Below are positions 14,825 through 59,360 of a stretch of DNA of 64,000 bases, piece by piece. The translations under genes and the position numbers were made by a program. The stretch comes from Eledone cirrhosa. Lineage: Eukaryota. The notes under the pieces are model-generated. The model saw only the letters and a list, made by a program, of their open reading frames with translations. It was not told the DNA's origin and did no database searches. The stretch is from contig OZ024740.1 of assembly GCA_964016885.1 (NCBI GenBank), positions 123,814,001 through 123,878,000 of the forward strand. Reading direction: 5' to 3'. Each line of letters starts with the position of its first letter. Within the stretch, counting starts at the first letter, position 1.

Positions 14825-15272
14825 AGGCTCCTGCAATTCCCATCTACCAAATCTTACTGACAACTCACTGCTCAAACAGAATGTATAGTAAGAAAGACCT
14901 ACATGTGTTAACAGGAAGAGGAATTCATCCTGAAAAAGATGATTGTTCTTATCCACACAGCCATACTTGCTTTTATATATATTCTATTAGCTGCAAAGCT
15001 ATATCAGGCAGTAAAGAGCCAAGAGATTCATATTTATACAGAATTTTAAGTACAAAATATTTGGATATTTAGTGTCTGGTAGATCTTTGTGACTGTATTA
15101 AAATATACATTACTTTATCCATGTACTGATTTTTGTTTTTCCTGTTTGTAGAGCCAAGCCTATAACAACCTAACACCATCATCGTTTAACATCCATTTTT
15201 CATGCTAGTATGTATCAGATGAGTTGTCTCATTTTGAGACAGGACAGATCAGTTGACCATGTTTGCTCATGG

Positions 15273-15307
<35 letters not shown>

Positions 15308-15315
15308 GGGGGGGG

Positions 15316-15625
15316 GTGTAATAGTAATGTGCGTGAATGGCGAAGCATAAACGAATTGATAGAGAGACTAAGCATAAGATGTATCAAATGCTGTGTTCTG
15401 GAGAAGAAATTGCATTGGTATGGACATGTGATGTATATGAAGGATGACAGCTGTATAAAAATGTGCAGGACAATGAAAATTGATGGAAGCTACAGAGTGG
15501 GTAGACCAACAAAAACCTGGGGCGAGGTGATAAAAACTGACCTTGCTCACTTACACCTCTCTAAGACAATGACACTTGATCGAGATCTTTGGTGCCATGC
15601 AGTTGTACAGAAAACCCGACTGCCA
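15316..15625 (+). mobile_element. RTE LINE 3' coding fragment
   Basis: ORF 15263..15700 KLHWYGHVM...GRPTKTW...DRDLW is homologous to 45835..46515. Confidence 0.8.
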
Positions 15626-15899
15626 TATCCACCTAACATTCACTCTTTGACATTAGAGATAGAACAGATTCTCTATACCATTTCCTGCAGCATGACTTAG
15701 CAAGCTATTTAGAACCATGGTTTAACCACTTTACTTCCCTCCGAAGAAGAGATATTATCTAAAAAATTAAGGATATTTAAATAAATTTAAGGTAAAAGAC
15801 TAATTGTCAACAATATCTTTTGCATTTGCATTTATATTCTATATCCATACCTGCATTGTTTAGGCTTTACAAATACAAACGTTTATACCTCATTAAACA

Positions 15900-18477
15900 A
15901 TGCTTCAAGTAAACTATAACTTCTTCCTTTCCTTACGCCTGAGCCAGGCCCAGTTCACAACTGTAAAGAAACTCTTCCAGCTATCTAAAAAGCGCGCCAA
16001 AGCCGGCTGCCAAATAAACTTCCTCAAACGATGCCTGAATAACAACAGCATCCCCCAAACTATCAAAAACTTGCATCTACCAACATGCTTCAAACCACCA
16101 GCCCTCAAACCATCACTTAGCTACATACAAAAATTCTGCCTAAGAAAACTCATACACCTATACCGCACGCTACAACAACACATACGGACTATTTCCAGCT
16201 TTGTACCACAACTCGCTGAAACCCCTGAACCTCTGCCCAGAGTTATCCCCGCCGCTATAGACATGTCATACCACCATCGCCGAGACTACGAGAAAATACA
16301 CCTAACGCAAAAATTTCTCAAACTCAGCACGACTAACCGTCTTAACAACAACCCAACTCTAAGCACCAACAGAGGCGAACAAGACGGTACTAACACCGAA
16401 CCTAGCAACCTAGCGGCGCCCCGACCAACAACACACCTAATTCAAAACACCTCGTCACAGACTTGACAGGAACCCTCTCCCGAGAGGAATTAGACCTCCT
16501 CAGCCTGGGTCCCAAGTTCATATTGAAACAGAGACTGGACGACAAATTATGGCTCGACATAGAAACGAATTTCTGTCGGGCTGCCTACCAACAAAAAATG
16601 GATATCGACTCTCGGCAACAACACCACGGAATCTAACAAACCCAGATTCCCGATATACCAACTGGATCACCCACTCTGTCCACCGCCTGCCAACCGCGAG
16701 CTTGAAGAAAAACTCTCGAGGCTAAAACATTCCGTATTTAGCATCTTACGGAAACAGAAGAAGATAGCCCCAAACCTCTCCAGGACACAACAACTCGCCC
16801 TGAAGAACCTACGGAATAGGGAACTTATATACTTACCATCCGACAAAGGTAAAGAGTTTTGTGTCATCTCTCGAGCCCCATACAACAACCTAGCCTTTGA
16901 ACACCTAAGCGACAATGATATACAGAGATCCCGGACATGACTGCAGCCCTGATCGAAAAACAGGCCAACCCCATCTGGTTAGACATCTGTAGGAGAAGAC
17001 AACTCCCAAATAAAGTTATACTCAACTACACCACTAGAAATATCAGACTGCCCACTTTCTACCACCTCATCAAGACCCACAAGATTAGTATTAAGACACA
17101 AATAAGACCCATCGTCTCTAGCATAGAAGGATCCCTATACAAAATCTCCTGACTCCTCTCCCAGGTCCTCAAGCTTCTACTCTCCATCTTCCCCGGGCAT
17201 GTCAGTAGCTCCGACGAAGTCATACATAGACTACACCAACTCCAGCCAGAACAACTTAAACTAAATAGATACGCCTTTAGCCTCGACGTTGTCTCCATCT
17301 ACACTACAGTCCCTGCTCATCCAGCTGTCGATTTATTGACGGACTGCGTGGTTGCAGAGGACATCCACTGCTACGGCCTCCATCCGACGGACATACACCA
17401 GCTTTTGTCCTTCACAGTGGACAACACGTACTTCACCTTCCACCACCACACATACATACAGACAACAGGATTACCCATGGGATCCAGCCTATCGGGCTTG
17501 CTGTCCATCACCCATATGAACCAGCTAGAATGCTGACACATCAACACCTGCTATTCCCATACCTTCTTCACCCGATATGTAGATGACATACTCATCCTTA
17601 TGTCATCCCGTGAGGAGGCGGATAAAATATACACAACATTCTCCAGCATGGACACCAGTATAATGTTCAGCATGGAACACCCCGATGACCGCGGATCCCT
17701 ACTGGATACCTACTGGACTTCCAACTCAGGGTAACATAGGAAGGCAACATGCACACCTGCTTCTATAAAAAAGCCGCCAGCAGGCACCTGTTTGTAGAAT
17801 TTCAGATCGGCCCTCCCAGCGGGCGCTAAGTTCGGATACATAAGGAATGAACTAACACGTATCCGGAACAAATGCACTGATGCTAAAGACCAAGACACAC
17901 ACACCACACATTTCCTGGAAGTACTCAAACTGAACGGAACCCGACGTCCACCACGAACCGTGCAAGAAAGAACAGAGGACACCACACCCGAAGCACTAAC
18001 ACCTGCTTCCTGAAGCTCCCACACTTCAGTGAGGAAACAACAACAGCCATCCGCAGAGCTATCAGACGAGAGGGACAAGATATTCAACTAGCCCACTCAG
18101 GGCCTTCTCTACGCGGACGGCTAACCAAAAGACACTCTACCAGACATGACAGCCACTGCAGGCTAGCCAACTGCCCCATCAACGACACAGACCTATGCCA
18201 CCAGACTTACGTCGTATACAGATTAGAGTGCGACAAATGCAGCAACTTCTACGTAGGTAGCACCACCAGACCACTTCACATAAGAATAAAAGAACACCTC
18301 AATACTAACGCTTCCTCATTTAAGAAACACCTAGTGAAATGCAAAAACACAGACAAAAACATAACTGTTAGGATAGACACTAAGGAAAGAAACCTCGGCA
18401 ATCTTAGAATTAAGGAAGCCCTGATTATAGAGAAAACACAACCACCAATCAATAATAGACTAGAACTCAACACCTAA
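15900..18477 (+). pseudogene. Disrupted PLE polyprotein: reverse transcriptase plus C-terminal GIY-YIG endonuclease
   Basis: ATG at 15900; LLSLGPKF; YLPSDKG; FYHLIKTHK..IRPIVS; YIQTTGLPMGSSLS; RYVDD (17573-17587); VVYRLECDKCSNFYVGSTTRPLHIRIKEH (18211-18297); TAA 18475-18477; stops at 17150 and 17534 plus frameshifts. Confidence 0.9.
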
Positions 18478-18836
18478 TTTATAACTTGATAGAGCACCTA
18501 GCCCCATACTTACACCCCCCTCTTACACACACTCACACGCTTACATCTCCACTTATTCTCTCTCTCACACACCCACATACACACACAAAGACCAGTTTTA
18601 ACACGATAGAGCATCTATCCCCCATATTTACGTATAGACATCTTCTCACACACATACTTACACCTTCACGTATTCTCCGACACACTTAAACATACATGTA
18701 CAAAACCCCTTTTAAAGGGAGACTACTCTTTATCCACCTTCACTCTTTTGACATTAGAGATAGAACAGATTCACTTTACCATTTCCTGTCAGCATGACTT
18801 GGCAAGCTATTTAGAATGCTGGTTTAACCACTTTAG

Positions 18837-18871
18837 CCTCCGAAGAAGAGATATTATCTCGAAAATTAAGG
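18837..18871 (+). ncRNA. Minimal hammerhead ribozyme in the 3' pseudo-LTR of PLE-A (5' copy at 15738-15772 has lost GAAA)
   Basis: CCT-CCGAAGA-A-GAGAT/ATCTC-GAAA-AT-TA-AGG: 3 bp stem I and palindromic AATT stem III. Confidence 0.65.
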
Positions 18872-19133
18872 ATATTTAAATAAATTTAAGGTAAAAGACT
18901 AATTGTCAACAATATCTTTTGCATTTGCATTTATATTCTATATCCTTACCTGCATTGTTTTGGCTTTACAAATACAAACGTTTATATATATATATATATA
19001 TCATCATCACCGTTTTACGTCCGTTCTTCCACGCTAGCATGGGTTAGATATGTATGTATATATAGAGAGATAGAACACTGGAAGGTAATATCCGTAGTGG
19101 TAGAGCACTCAGTCCATGGGACGAGTTTGGTAG

Positions 19134-19236
19134 AAGTAATAACACAACAGTTAGTTCACCATACCGAGAACTGAAGATCCGTATAAGGTGAAACAATTGT
19201 TCTTGGTATGGTGAACTAACTGTTGTGTTACTACTT
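19134..19236 (+). ncRNA. Hammerhead core at the apex of a 38 bp inverted repeat
   Basis: CTGAAGA (19171)-TCC.GTATAA.GGT-GAAA-CAATTG-TT; arms 19134-19171 and 19199-19236 differ at 2 positions. Confidence 0.65.
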
Positions 19237-19257
19237 AAATATATATATATATATATA

Positions 19258-19575
19258 TTAGAGCATTGGCCTTGTAATCGAAAGGTTGTGAGTTCAATTC
19301 TCACACAGGGTGATGTGTTGTTTCCCTGAGCAAGACACTTTATTTCACATTGCTCCAGTTTACTCAGCTGTAGAAATGAGATGATAGGGACTGGGGTCCC
19401 TATCAATCCACTGTAAAGTGGACGTGTAGGCACCACAGAAAAAAGCACCCAGCACTCACTGTAAATGAGGTTGGTGTTAGGAAGTGCATCCAGCTGTAGA
19501 AATCATGCCAGAATCAGTTCCCGTCCCACCCTTGCAAGCAGGGAAAATCGGACGTAAAATGAAATGATGATGAAA
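19258..19575 (+). mobile_element. SINE family 1 (tRNA head, CORE-like middle, RTE-derived 3' tail), slightly 5'-truncated
   Basis: B-box-like GAGTTCAATTC; near-identical to 32031-32372. Confidence 0.85.
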
Positions 19576-29590: not shown

Positions 29591-30555
29591 TTTCTTTATC
29601 CAAAACCAGGTAAGGTAGGTCTGTGGCCTGAGAGTCCAGAAGTTTCCCCAGAAGGAAGGCTTATGTTTGTTTTCTGTTAGCAGTTATAATTTCCATTGCC
29701 AGCTTGCTAACCCTCTCATGACTAATGCCTTCGATGTTGTCCAAGGGAAGGGCAAGGAGCGACAAAGTTTGAAAACAGTGATGTTGCAATTCATTTCTAC
29801 AGCTGATTGAACTGGTGCAATGTGAAATAAAATGTCTTGATGAACAACATAATGCATTTCCCAGTCTGAAAATCGAACACATAACCTCACGCTAGTTAAT
29901 CCAACTCTTTAACCACTAAGCAACGTGCCTTTACTAAAATGAAAAATAAGCATGACAACCTTGATCCCACCCCCACATCAAGAACTGAAATATCTTGTTC
30001 CCACTACCACCATTGCCATCATGTTCATTTCCATTGCTGGTGCCATCGCCATCATTTTCTTTTTCCTCATCATTGCCATCATTACCAGCCTTGAGAAAGA
30101 GCTAAACAAATTAATTCAGTTATCCAATAGCAGTCAAAAGAAGCAAGAGCCCAGGTGTCAGGCAGTAAATCTTTGCAATACCTATACTTTACTATTCTAA
30201 GTATTGAGAACTTAGTTGAACAATGCTCTTGCTAGTTTAAACCAATACCTCCCAATCTATCTGTCTCTCTCTTACTCTCTCTCTCTCTCTATATATATAT
30301 ATAAATGAAAAGTATAGAAATTGTTGTAGCGAGAAGTTAACAGTATTCCATAACATATAAGTGACTATAGCGTCAAAATGGGAAAATAGTTAACATAAGA
30401 TATGGGAAAAATAATTCAGACTCAATTCAAAAGGAATCAGGATATAGATTTATTCAACAGAATTTAGAGAAATCCAGGGAAAAATCAATAGAGCCTTAAC
30501 TCATGATAAAAAAAAGTCTAAAGTACTGAACCTTCTATTTGGGACAACTTCAAAT

Positions 30556-30637
30556 GCTCTGTATAGTCTTGAAAAGACTATTTCACAAAAACTTTCAGTG
30601 GGGACGGTTACGGTTGAATTTCGTTCATCAGCAGAGC
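30556..30637 (-). ncRNA. Full-length type I hammerhead ribozyme with canonical core
   Basis: Minus strand: GCTCTG-CTGATGA-ACGAAA...TTTTGT-GAAA-TAGTCTT-TTC-AAGACTA-TA|CAGAGC. Stem I 6 bp, stem II ~6+4 bp, stem III 8 bp; predicted cut between 30562 and 30561. Confidence 0.85.
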
Positions 30638-30847
30638 TCAACATGGTAACCAAGGTCTCACTGGTAATATGCCAAAAAGGGAATTTAAAAGCAGGCTATT
30701 TTAACATCATGCGTGATTATTAAAATAAACGCACATGTGGAAAAACAGGGCTGGTGACGTCAGAATGAGACAAATGTTTGTTTACATGAAACAACAGTCA
30801 AAAACATTCCGAAATAAATTATTTCATTTATATTTCATTTATATATA

Positions 30848-31102
30848 TATAAATGAAATAACAGGAGGCTGGACTGGTGTAAATACTTCAAAGGTTTATT
30901 ATACTATGATCATTTCAATGACCGGATTCCATATGAATCCGGTGATATCATTAGGTATTGGAATATAACAAAGGAATATGTAAAAAGCCATGAGTCCGAA
31001 AAACCATGGGTCCTGAAACGAAAGACAGAGAAGACGGCTGACAAAAGAATAATAAATCTTTCAAGGATTTACACCAGTCCAGCCTCCTGTTATTTTATTT
31101 AT
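30848..31102. repeat. ~55 bp inverted repeats enclosing a hammerhead motif (30902-30957, minus strand, CTAATGA core)
   Basis: Arms 30848-30901 and 31050-31102; minus strand TAC-CTAATGA-..ACCGGATTC/GAATCCGGT..-GAAA-TGATCA-TA-GTA. Confidence 0.72.
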
Positions 31103-31280: not shown

Positions 31281-31603
31281 ATCATCATCATCATCATCAT
31301 TTCATTTTACGTCCCCTTTTCCCTGCTTGCAAGGGTGGGACGGGAACTGATTCTGGCTTGATTTCTACAGCTGGATGCCCTTTCTAACACCAACCTCATT
31401 TACAGTGAGTGCTGGGTGCTTTATTGCAGTGGAATGATATGGACCCCAGTCCCTATCATCTCATTTCTACAGCTGAGTAAACTAGAGCAATGTGAAATAA
31501 AGTGTCTTGCTCAAGGAAACAATACATCACCCGGTTTGAGAAATTGAACTCACAACCTTTCAATTGCAAGGCCAATGCTCCAACCACTAAGCCATGTGCG
31601 TCC
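31281..31603 (-). mobile_element. SINE family 1
   Basis: Reverse complement of 32031-32372. Confidence 0.85.
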
Positions 31604-31607
31604 ATAT

Positions 31608-31836
31608 ATATACAATATATTAATAAATGGAAACTATATTTATAAAACCATAAATTATTTTATTATATATATTTCCAGGGCGACCAAGGTAAATTATGGT
31701 GCGCTTTCATCAGATAAAATACAGATTTATCTGATGAAAGCGCACCATAATTGACCTTGGTCGCCCTGGAAATATATATAATAAAATAATTTATGGTTTT
31801 ATAAATATAGTTTCCATTTATTAATATATTGTATAT
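31608..31836. repeat. Near-perfect ~230 bp palindrome carrying two mirror hammerheads (31726-31785 plus; ~31658-31717 minus)
   Basis: TTTAT-CTGATGA-stem II-GAAA-TATATA-TA-ATAAA; loop ~31718-31725. Confidence 0.85.
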
Positions 31837-32030: not shown

Positions 32031-32372
32031 TGGAGGCACATGGCTTAGTGGTTAAAACATTGGCCTTGCAATCGAAAGGTTGTGAGTTCAATTCTCAGAC
32101 CCGGTGATGTGTTGTTCCCATTAGCAAGACACTTTATTTCACATTGCTCCAGTTTACTCAGTTGTAGAAATGAGATGATGGGGACTGGGGTCCATATCAT
32201 TCCACTGGAAAGTGGTCGTGCAGGTGCCACGTCAAAAAAGCACCAAGAACTCACTGTAAATGAGGTTGGTCTTAGGAAGGGCATCCAGCTGTAGAAATCA
32301 AGCCAGAATTATTTCCCGTCCCATCCTTGCAAGCAGGGAAAAGCGGACGGAAAATGATGATGATGATGATGA
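32031..32372 (+). mobile_element. SINE family 1, full length
   Basis: TGGCTTAGTGG A box, GAGTTCAATTC B box, CORE-like AGCAAGACACTTTA, 3' part matching the RTE 3' UTR, (GAT)n tail. Confidence 0.88.
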
Positions 32373-32702
32373 TTCTATTATATGTTGAGCCAACTGATGC
32401 AGCTTCATATGCAAATGAAATTACACAGACAAGAAAACTATATATTCTCGACTGTTCTCAAGTCCAGCAGCCACAAGCGAGGTAGGGATTGTCCTGATGA
32501 AGACCAGTTAGTCTGAAATGCATCGATGATTGTCCCCCTTGCTTCTGCTGGACACTACCAGAAGACGTTAGCCGGGGTGTTTTTTGCATAGCTATGGCTT
32601 CCTAAATGTTTACCCTGTAAACATACTGTGTTTCTTTAGAAATACTAAATTTCTATACATATCAGTATACAGCTATGCTTGAAGCTAAATCCTATTTCTA
32701 TT
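32373..32702 (+). mobile_element. ~330 bp non-coding HHR-containing unit in partial tandem (retrozyme/pLTR-like)
   Basis: Its last ~70 nt are repeated at 31957-32027; contains an HHR; diverged homologue at ~60520-60740. Confidence 0.7.
32488..32530 (+). ncRNA. Minimal hammerhead ribozyme with canonical core
   Basis: ATTGTC-CTGATGA-AGAC.CAGTTA.GTCT-GAAA-TGCA-TC|GATGAT; palindromic ATGCAT; distal pairing CCAGCAG/CTGCTGG. Confidence 0.82.
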
Positions 32703-32822
32703 ATATATATATAACTATGACTTACTAAAGTAAACAAACCACTATCCTAATGGCCTCCAAAAGCAACGGTCAATTTTTAAAGGGGTACGTCAATGTCTAT
32801 TTATAAAACTGTTATATATTGT

Positions 32823-32887
32823 ATTTTGTCTGATGAAGGCATACCATAATGTAACTTGGTAACCTTGAAATACATATAATGAAATAA
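32823..32887 (+). ncRNA. Hammerhead ribozyme with canonical core (homologue of 31726-31785)
   Basis: ATTTTGT-CTGATGA-AGG..TACCA/TGGTA.CCT-T-GAAA-TACATA-TA|ATGAAAT. Confidence 0.75.
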
Positions 32888-32925
32888 ATAAGGTTTTATA
32901 AATATAGTTTCCATTTATTAATATC

Positions 32926-55760: not shown

Positions 55761-56170
55761 CAGATATATTCGAAGAATCACCTGTTAATTTTTGGATCGA
55801 CCTCGTCAAGAGCTGAAACGAATAACGCAAATATTTGATTTCTGACAGTTTCACGAATTCATTACCTACATACAGACACACACAGAGACACGCACACACA
55901 TATATATATATAAGTTTATACCGGGTTCAATCAGGTGTAAACACAGGAAGTAAGGTACTCAATACATAGTAGCGTATAAATGTTTAATGTAGAAATGGCT
56001 TTTACAGGACTAGAACCGTTTCATTCGAGAGAAATCATATATCTATATGCATTGTTGGTGCAATAGTTGCTTATATATCCATATATACATACATATATAT
56101 ATTATGAAATACTGTTGGCTTCTTGCTCACATTAATTTCTCTATTTTCATTTATATATATATATATATAT

Positions 56171-57570: not shown

Positions 57571-59360
57571 ATTGCTAGTAACTACAGACTGTTCTACTTC
57601 CTCTCCCTGATCATACGCCCCATCATTGAAATGTCCCCAGATGTATGTGACAGCACGGAGGACCTCCTTAGCAGAATCGGCGAGAGTAACCGAAATAGGG
57701 ACCTAACAAACTGCGTAATAGGTAGTATGGATGTTGTGTCCCTGTATCCATCTATTGGCGGGATTTTGCTGTGGAAAAAATGCGTAGAAATGATCAGTGA
57801 GAGCAATGTTGAATTCCATGGGATTGATACCAGTGAGCTGGGACTCGTACTTAAACTTACCTATAGTAATACTTATCTAGACACATATGACCTTAGCAAC
57901 CTGTGCCCTACAAGACCAGCAAGAGGCAGACCACCTACCATTACCTAAATGGCCAAGAAAACCCACACAGATAGATGGAACGGGTGGACCAGAGCCATAC
58001 GGACCCCCGAAAACCACGATGAACTAAAGAAAATGATTGCACATGCGGTGGGGGCCAGCATAAAATTAACCCTTAAGGAACATATGTTCAAATTTAATGG
58101 AAAAACATATGCCCAAGAGGCGGGAGCAGCCATTGGTGTTAGCATTGCAGGCGACATAGCTAACTTATTCATGGTATGGTGTGACAGTAGACTTAAACTT
58201 AAACTTAAAGAACAATTAGAAGACCCCTTAACCCTGATAATGTACTCCCGCTACGTTGATGATATAAACATCGTAGTTAAAACACGCCCACTAGAGAACA
58301 GTCAGGAATTAGAGAAAAACACAATGGAAAGCATCCAGCAGAGTATTAGAGTTACTATAGACTACCCAAACAAACACCCCAACCATCAATTACCTGTACT
58401 AGACACAGAGCTCTGGTTAGAAACCATTAATAACAAAAAACAAATCCTCCATTCCCATTATGCCAAACCCATGACTTCCAAATATCTGATCCACCGAAAC
58501 TCAGCTGTTTTGGACCATACCAAAATCAACATACTGATTGCGGATTTGGTATGGGTGATGAGAAATGTGTCCTGCATGTGCAACACCGAAGAACTAGAGA
58601 GACACATACAACTCTTCATTCACCGTACGCAGTTCTCTGGTTACAATCAGAGAGATAAAATCAGAGTGTATAGAGCAGCCAGAACCAAATGGGAAAAAAT
58701 GTAAATAATGACACAAATGGGACCTGCCCCTTGTATAGGAGCAAATTTTGGAATATAATTGAAAGAACTAGGAATAAGGCTAATAGAATAAACTCATGGT
58801 ATGATAGCAATAAATACCAGAGTGTAATGTTCATCGATACAACACCTAGAGGTGAATTAGCTTACACATTTAGAAGGACCCTAGATAAACATAAACTCAA
58901 TATTAAGATAGTAGAAAGAGCAGGTACCTCCATAAATACACTTATTAGCAACACATACCCTTTTCAAAGACCTCTCTGTATAGATAAGAAATGTATAATC
59001 TGTAAATTAAGCCCCCATATTAACTGTAAAACTAGAAATGTAGTATATAGCCTAAGATGTACTGAAGGACAATGTAGAGATAAAAATATAGTGTACATAG
59101 GTGAGACAGCTCGTAGTATAAGGGAACGGATAAATGAACACTAGCGAGACCTTCAAGCTAGTAAAGAATCATCTGTACTCTATCAACATGCTAAAATAGA
59201 ACATAAGGGTAAATTAGAGAACATAGAAATAAAAATAGAATCTACACACAGAAAAGACGCAATGTTTAGACAAATCACAGAGGCAATAAACATGAATGAA
59301 TTACAACCAAAATTAAATAGAAAACATGAGTAGAATAGCAACATCACAACTTACAATTAA
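57571..59360 (+). pseudogene. Disrupted PLE-C RT plus GIY-YIG coding region
   Basis: GSMDVVSLYPSI; YAQEAGAAIG; YSRYVDD; CIDKKCIICK; VVYSLRC...YIGETARSIRERINEH; stops at 57946 and 59142, frameshift at ~58700. Confidence 0.88.

Follow-up and report, generated by a model that had tools for sequence, protein, structure and literature searches.

Does the hammerhead motif that lies in a short non-coding insert of the Eledone cirrhosa genome belong to a ribozyme that is still at work, and what kind of sequence carries it? The question arose from a stretch of 64,000 nucleotides of contig OZ024740.1 (henceforth the window), for which a first-pass annotation, made from the letters alone, had described an intact full-length hammerhead and named it the best candidate for an active ribozyme. 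Our answer, to which we assign a probability of roughly 0.7, is that the motif sits in a 5'-truncated copy of a repeat of ~630 bp which probably owes its mobility to Penelope-like elements that target (TA)n, and whose ribozyme is predicted to be self-cleaving. Such an element is most likely an animal non-LTR retrozyme, i.e. a Penelope-derived non-autonomous element.

Read directly on the minus strand (30637 to 30556), the motif is a complete type I hammerhead of 82 nt that runs GCUCUG, CUGAUGA, 40 nt of helix II, GAA, AUAGUCUU-UUC-AAGACUAU, A and CAGAGC. All invariant nucleotides of the hammerhead are present (C3 to A9, G12 to A14, A15.1-U16.1 and A17), and the open helix I together with the closed helices II and III gives the type I topology. 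The core had been called canonical (CUGAUGA, GAAA and an AUA triplet) and every part of it can indeed be read on the minus strand. The lengths claimed for helix I (6 bp) and helix III (8 bp) agree with both the reading and a descriptor scan, and hammerhead numbering leads to the same predicted bond for the cut (30562/30561). Helix I consists of six Watson-Crick pairs, and helix III folded alone reaches -5.7 kcal/mol. Helix II rises from a base of six A/U-rich pairs (ACGAAA/UUUUGU, one G.U, with A-U at 10.1/11.1), followed in the constrained fold by a 3-nt bulge, a 4-bp extension and a 17-nt loop. The 10.1-11.1 pair of hammerheads is usually G-C, and the A-U of the window copy counts against a clean call. 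By eye, helix I shows no extension or internal loop beyond its 6 bp that could contact loop 2; the hammerheads of mussel retrozymes, described as devoid of the archetypal tertiary contacts, still cleave (PMC7229834). The expectation that the motif would fold as a monomer is plausible in view of its stable helix III, unlike the minimal hammerheads of Penelope elements.

Table 1. Parts of the hammerhead motif and of the repeat copy that contains it, in window coordinates.
Feature	Position	Strand	Basis or remark
Type I hammerhead motif, 82 nt	30556..30637	-	direct reading; sole strict descriptor match in the window
Helix I, 5' strand GCUCUG	30632..30637	-	perfect pairing with 30556-30561
Core C3-A9, CUGAUGA	30625..30631	-	N7 is 30627, the sole core position varying among family copies
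Helix II, 40 nt	30585..30624	-	constrained fold
Core G12 A13 A14	30582..30584	-	direct reading
Helix III hairpin, 8 bp including A15.1-U16.1, loop UUC	30563..30581	-	folding
A17; predicted cut 3' of this base, 30562/30561	30562	-	hammerhead numbering
Helix I, 3' strand CAGAGC	30556..30561	-	direct reading, fold
5'-truncated repeat copy ending TTTTCATTT(TA)n	30290..30818	-	BLAST against 30 genomic copies, and L025:1221-1848 against the window
Junction upstream of the copy	30819..30858	-	19-nt repeat of the copy's own 3' end (30840-30858), and inverted complement plus filler (30819-30840)

Both strands of the window were scanned with a strict descriptor (helix I of at least 5, helix II of at least 4 and helix III of at least 4 pairs, core CUGANGA/GAAA, U16.1 and H17). 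A single site was returned, the one at 30556-30637, with 6, 6 and 8 pairs, and when the window was dinucleotide-shuffled 300 times, only one shuffle contained any strict match; on these two grounds we take the motif to be real rather than a product of chance. Rfam (release 15) did not recognise it. At the gathering score no family was matched at the motif in a search of the whole window, hammerhead models included, and at E<=10 neither the whole window nor a 201-nt slice gave a match there to a hammerhead model or to any other family. The majority variant of the repeat family likewise went without an Rfam hammerhead match at E<=10. The search itself works, since RF00163 recovers 18 minimal hammerheads above the cut-off elsewhere in the source genome. 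The Rfam model, with its 45 positions, probably cannot absorb a helix II of 40 nt together with a long helix III. Standard Rfam screening misses the hammerhead of this repeat family entirely, and genomic hammerhead censuses built on Rfam undercount such variants.

The insert that carries the motif is a 529-bp, 5'-truncated copy (unit positions ~108-628) of a non-coding repeat of ~630 bp, with 94.9% identity by BLAST. This bears out the description of a non-coding insert between TA runs (30290-30818, with no overlapping ORF above 77 aa) and supplies the identity that the first-pass annotation had missed, namely a single 5'-truncated copy of a high-copy, Penelope-type non-autonomous retroelement. 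We used a natural full copy (L025:1221-1848) as the ruler for unit coordinates and compared 30 loci. The unit measures ~628-640 bp, starts with CTCGGATTTATTTCC and ends with TTTTCATTT(TA)n. It has a GC content of 32.6% and holds one hammerhead motif, at unit positions 281-362 on the sense strand of the element. Close to its 5' end, at unit ~50-65, lies a hypervariable homopolymer tract that ranges from T9A6 to A13 between copies.

When the 82-nt motif was searched against the 3.0-Gb genome, all 40 scored matches had 94-100% identity, among 1080 first-look candidates; with a 119-nt piece of the 3' part, all 40 scored matches reached 98-100%, among 1633 candidates. The copies are spread over many contigs, and the family amounts, as a rough figure, to the order of a thousand rough genome matches. 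A genome search for copy number and parent element had been proposed: it delivered the first, as the 1080-1633 first-look candidates, while for the second an autonomous partner is suggested. The window holds another fragment of the family at 56096-56165 on the plus strand, a strongly 5'-truncated piece of 70 bp (unit 559-628, 87% identity).

How well the window copy would fold is a separate matter. The unconstrained minimum free energy (MFE) structure of its 82-mer (-18.2 kcal/mol, z -2.78) has helices I and III formed and helix II absent. The majority variant, represented by the natural copy L018, has as its MFE structure exactly the hammerhead three-way junction (-20.0 kcal/mol), and its helix II has G-C as the third pair plus a small distal stem. 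The window copy departs from the family majority by four private substitutions in helix II, at 30617, 30609, 30605 and 30587 (by hammerhead index, U for C at 21, A for G at 29, G for A at 33 and U for C at 51). Three of these differences are also visible against the contigs of three coded runs, which are contigs of one sample and behave like DNA. Helix II alone folds at -5.6 kcal/mol in the majority variant versus -0.8 kcal/mol in the window copy. With these four substitutions, and with the hammerhead-compatible share of the nearest-neighbour ensemble down from 27% in the majority variant to 0.3% in the window copy, the word intact was an overstatement. So was best candidate for an active ribozyme, given that the hammerhead fold of the window copy lies 3.0 kcal/mol above its MFE.

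The ribozyme is predicted to cleave the RNA that carries it. With one ribozyme, no upstream partner and a weakened helix II, the window copy represents a dead end. A single ribozyme does not allow a unit-length RNA to be released, and at most the window copy would cut a read-through transcript once, probably slowly. Since window copy and majority variant differ only in helix II, the two together form a natural experiment on the weight of this helix. A different variant was seen at low depth in one contig each of the runs X1 and X3 (depth 4.5 and 12), where 30562-30632 is replaced by three letters, so that the catalytic part is gone and the helix I arms are left as a small hairpin; this is probably a deletion in one copy.

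Whether the ribozyme has been maintained can be asked of copies that were chosen without regard to it. Among copies selected through the 3' part of the repeat, a choice blind to the ribozyme, 21 cover the motif and 21 of 21 keep the core. N7 is the sole core position that varies in them (U in 11, C in 7, G in 3), and it is the one core position that the hammerhead leaves free. Eighteen of the 21 also pass helix thresholds of 5, 5 and 7 pairs. Across 47 distinct copies, 15 of 529 columns show a second allele in at least 4 copies, and three of these shared variants fall inside the motif: at N7, in the loop of helix II, and at a pair that alternates between G-C and G.U. What this suggests is continued selection on the master copies for a ribozyme that works, although three sites make a weak argument: by a rough hand estimate, the chance that all three would fall at tolerated positions is ~6-10%. 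Changes in the core of dispersed copies number 0 at 231 sites, where a hand count of private changes in the alignment would lead one to expect ~3, too weak a contrast to be used.

Two further results concern the imprint that the ribozyme might have left. Not one of the 29 unbiased insertions, nor of the 11 partial copies upstream, starts at the cleavage site (unit 356|357), the nearest 5' end being at 363; the genomic footprint expected of cleaved templates is thus absent. Folded as a circle, the L025 unit reaches -102.5 and has 54% of its bases paired, and 60 shuffles give -99.5 +/- 6.4 (z -0.47), so that for this one natural copy a rod-like, highly self-paired circular RNA is not predicted. 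We also observed a small cluster of 5' ends inside the ribozyme, at unit 328-343, in 4 of the 29 unbiased insertions and two upstream partial copies of the first set. This cluster (L077/L029, L078, L083, L091, L017 and L008) begins in the 3' strand of helix II and reaches helix III, it lies off the cleavage site, and it may mark stalling of the reverse transcriptase at the folded motif.

The way in which the copies are inserted points to the machinery that moves them. All copies have their 3' end in common, and their 5' ends are scattered over unit 1 to 464. In the first set of loci, 14 contain a copy that starts at unit 1-7, and 11 of the 14 have a 5'-truncated copy upstream in head-to-tail orientation; the second set adds further head-to-tail cases at L083, L089, L093 and L095. 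The longest tandem in the sampled loci reaches ~2.5 units, most loci holding single copies or 1.x-mers. At internal junctions the TA run measures 12 nt in 10 of the 12 junctions caught by a sequence pattern (8 and 14 nt in the other two), whereas external TA tails vary from 4 to 67 nt (50 tails). A constant junction beside variable tails indicates that the junction was copied from a template that already contained it. An origin of the tandems by one copy landing in the tail of another was considered as well and is ruled out by the constant TA length.

Copies are found adjacent and inverted at L019 and L084. Of 27 insertions, 15 have a (TA) run of at least 4 repeats no more than 20 nt upstream, and in 22 of the 27 TA continues past the 3' end. 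L014 (G000:C4:27127184-27130265) has a direct duplication of ~40 nt of non-repeat target, the sole clear target site duplication among the 27. For six insertions that begin at unit 1-7, no copy could be recognised upstream. The window copy is itself bounded by TA runs; its upstream junction (Table 1) looks like the short partial copy found upstream at L007, and also like the inverted 5' copies that are known from Penelope-like elements (PMC8557442). The marks given for these elements in the same source are 5' truncation, partial tandems that form pseudo-LTRs, adjacent inverted copies and a bias towards (TA)n. The family displays the marks of Penelope-type integration in its 5' truncation with a common 3' end, in its tandems and inverted copies, and in its (TA)n target bias.

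Potential partners are present in the genome in large numbers. A GIY-YIG profile search yielded 10,595 candidates, and 150 of 150 scored matches lie above the Pfam cut-off. The window has a GIY-YIG ORF of its own, at 17887-18477, which scores 28.4 bits (cut-off 22.6). It forms part of a Penelope-like element on the plus strand (~15257-19003), with open frames at 15257-17536 ahead of it and a 3' region that ends in a TA run at ~18985-19003; inspection of 18380-19340 by eye showed no CUGAUGA...GAAA motif. A further open frame at 57949-58704 on the plus strand has a weak RVT_1 match (21.5 bits, below the cut-off of 29.6) and is probably another decayed retroelement.

Compared by BLAST with 30 GIY-YIG Penelope loci, a sample from more than 10,000 candidates, the unit shares only its last 21-22 nt with 8 of the 30, and nothing beyond the terminal ~22 nt with any. 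These 8 loci have the ending TTTTCA(TA)n, which occurs in two Penelope 3' regions unrelated to each other and is to be set against the TTTTCATTT(TA)n of the repeat. No similarity was found between the unit and 12 RF00163-type hammerhead loci of the source genome. A common 3' end is what one would look for if a non-autonomous partner mimicked its host element, but the stretch is short; judged from these sequences, an autonomous partner is suggested. The link to a Penelope partner consists of a 7-nt motif, a (TA)n run and the style of insertion.

Other explanations have to be weighed against this one. The motif might be a chance hammerhead-like sequence that shares no descent with ribozymes, a reading with which its absence from the Rfam matches would agree; yet the 1 in 300 shuffles refers to a descriptor much weaker than the helices of 6, 6 and 8 pairs observed, and the motif persists in all 21 of the unbiased family copies that cover it, which together make coincidence extremely improbable. 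The repeat might instead be a LINE-dependent SINE or a dispersed minisatellite whose Penelope-like marks are coincidental. It is, after all, short, non-coding and abundant, it is truncated at the 5' end and has a simple-repeat tail, and the Penelope loci share no more than its last ~22 nt. Nevertheless, tail and targets consist of (TA)n and a poly(A) tail is absent, the head-to-tail tandems are partial and have a constant junction, adjacent copies are inverted at L019 and L084, one locus has a long target duplication, and TTTTCA(TA)n is common to two unrelated Penelope 3' ends and the repeat. A SINE is further disfavoured by the many T-runs inside the unit, which, as judged from the sequence, argue against transcription by pol III, and a minisatellite by the dispersal of copies over many contigs with no satellite block. 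We give this explanation very little credence.

A more serious proposal is that the hammerhead is a relic of a Penelope terminal region, not needed for the mobility of the repeat and possibly inactive, at least in the window copy. Helix II is weak, above all in that copy; Rfam finds no match, 5' ends are missing at the cleavage site and the RNA is not rod-like, and in a low-depth contig variant 3 nt stand in place of the whole catalytic part. The function of hammerheads in EN+ Penelope-like elements is, moreover, described as unclear, and Naiads as proliferating without hammerheads (PMC8557442). Against a relic, the hammerhead is the MFE fold of the majority variant and lies on the sense strand. 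The core is kept in 21 of 21 copies, three subfamilies differ in it only at the free N7, and the other two shared variants of the motif preserve the structure. On this evidence we consider a mere relic unlikely, and we retain the reading of a Penelope-mobilised repeat with a ribozyme predicted to cleave itself.

For such a repeat a mechanism can be sketched along the lines of the retrozyme model (PMC7229834; bioRxiv 10.64898/2026.07.22.740005). L093 and L095 each contain two intact hammerhead motifs, with a spacing of 629 nt in the first and 628 nt in the second. A transcript that covered both ribozymes of such a locus, one unit from each other, would be processed to RNAs of unit length whose termini are 5'-OH and 2',3'-cyclic phosphate. 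A tRNA ligase could then circularise them, by analogy with what is described for animal non-LTR retrozymes, and a Penelope reverse transcriptase would likely copy the multimeric or circular RNA, beginning at the (UA)n tract, with a nicked (TA)n site as the target. Copying of this kind would give common 3' ends, 5' ends spread across the unit boundary and a constant (TA)6 junction. Among the copies, 5' ends that run on past the unit boundary are roughly as frequent as those that halt inside the unit. The constant junction and the spread of 5' ends fit a linear template with template switching equally well, and the six starts at unit 1-7 without an upstream copy agree with linear templates and switching as well as with circles.

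We therefore offer only tentatively, and as a doubtful rather than a favoured extension of the main reading, the idea that the family bears the record of Penelope-like elements specific for (TA)n that copied a hammerhead RNA by reverse transcription, in rolling-circle fashion or from a multimer, with priming at the internal (UA)6 and with a ribozyme of a long-helix-II class that Rfam does not detect. Were it true, retrozyme circles would be tied to the Penelope machinery by a direct footprint in the genome. The constant junction and the (TA)n targeting in any case make the use of Penelope machinery by animal retrozymes a testable model, and the mechanism of that use is left open in the 2026 preprint (10.64898/2026.07.22.740005).

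The window contains other motifs that recall hammerheads. On the plus strand, 32487-32531 is a minimal hammerhead-like motif with CUGAUGA, a 4-bp helix II, GAAA, the palindrome AUGCAU for helix III and a 7-bp helix I that includes wobbles; a TA run lies ~200 nt downstream. It had no Rfam match at E<=10, and going by its sequence it is probably a Penelope-type minimal hammerhead that would act as a dimer. A palindrome at 31620-31830 has arms of ~100 bp, each with CTGATGA, 31 nt and GGAAA (31672-31713 on the minus and 31731-31772 on the plus strand), and a third copy related to these arms lies at 32822-32925. All of them end in TTTCCATTTATTAATAT beside TA runs, much as the ~630-bp repeat does at its 3' end. 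Because the pairing next to their core is not canonical, these motifs are probably not working hammerheads. A tRNA-like, SINE-looking repeat with GGTTGTGAGTTCAATTCTC was noticed by eye at ~31500-31600, ~32036-32140 and ~19262-19340, in both orientations.

Among known systems, hammerheads in the pseudo-LTRs of Penelope-like elements were reportedly described by Cervera and de la Pena in 2014 and by Lunse et al. in 2017. The resemblance lies in the type I topology, the retroelement host, 5' truncation, partial tandems, inverted copies and (TA)n targeting. The Penelope hammerheads are described as minimal, with helix III nearly absent, and as acting in the form of dimers (PMC6155905, PMC8557442), whereas in the window motif helix III is stable, with 8 bp, and helix II is long, and neither a reverse transcriptase nor an endonuclease is encoded by its host. 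Sm-alpha of Schistosoma mansoni (Ferbeyre et al. 1998; PMC6155905) is, as here, a dispersed, non-autonomous and non-coding repeat with a monomeric type I hammerhead, a likeness drawn from its description. In Sm-alpha an internal loop of helix I contacts loop 2 (PMC6155905), a feature that we did not find in the window motif.

The closest match is with the animal non-LTR retrozymes (PMC7229834; 10.64898/2026.07.22.740005). Like them, the repeat is non-coding and of low GC content (33%), bears on its sense strand a single type I hammerhead in each unit, occurs in head-to-tail copies with many monomers, and co-occurs with Penelope-like elements. Its unit of ~630 bp exceeds the 170-400 nt of Cervera and de la Pena 2020 (PMC7229834) and falls inside the 51-972 bp of Li, Clavereau and Pollet 2026 (10.64898/2026.07.22.740005). 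Unlike the retrozymes of PMC7229834, it mostly has 1 to 2.5 units per locus and no long arrays, and the self-paired circles described there contrast with a unit that is not predicted to be highly self-paired; its ribozyme is set apart by the 40-nt helix II and the A-U at 10.1/11.1. The preprint reserves the word active for loci where two or more tandem units follow one another and a complete hammerhead is present in every one (10.64898/2026.07.22.740005): L093 and L095 are of this kind, and the window copy, a lone truncated monomer, is not. In the literature on retrozymes, hammerheads and Penelope elements we found no description of this repeat family, although the supplements of the preprint might list such families. 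The class itself is already known; what the present family adds to it is a well-delimited, hammerhead-bearing non-autonomous element of Penelope style.
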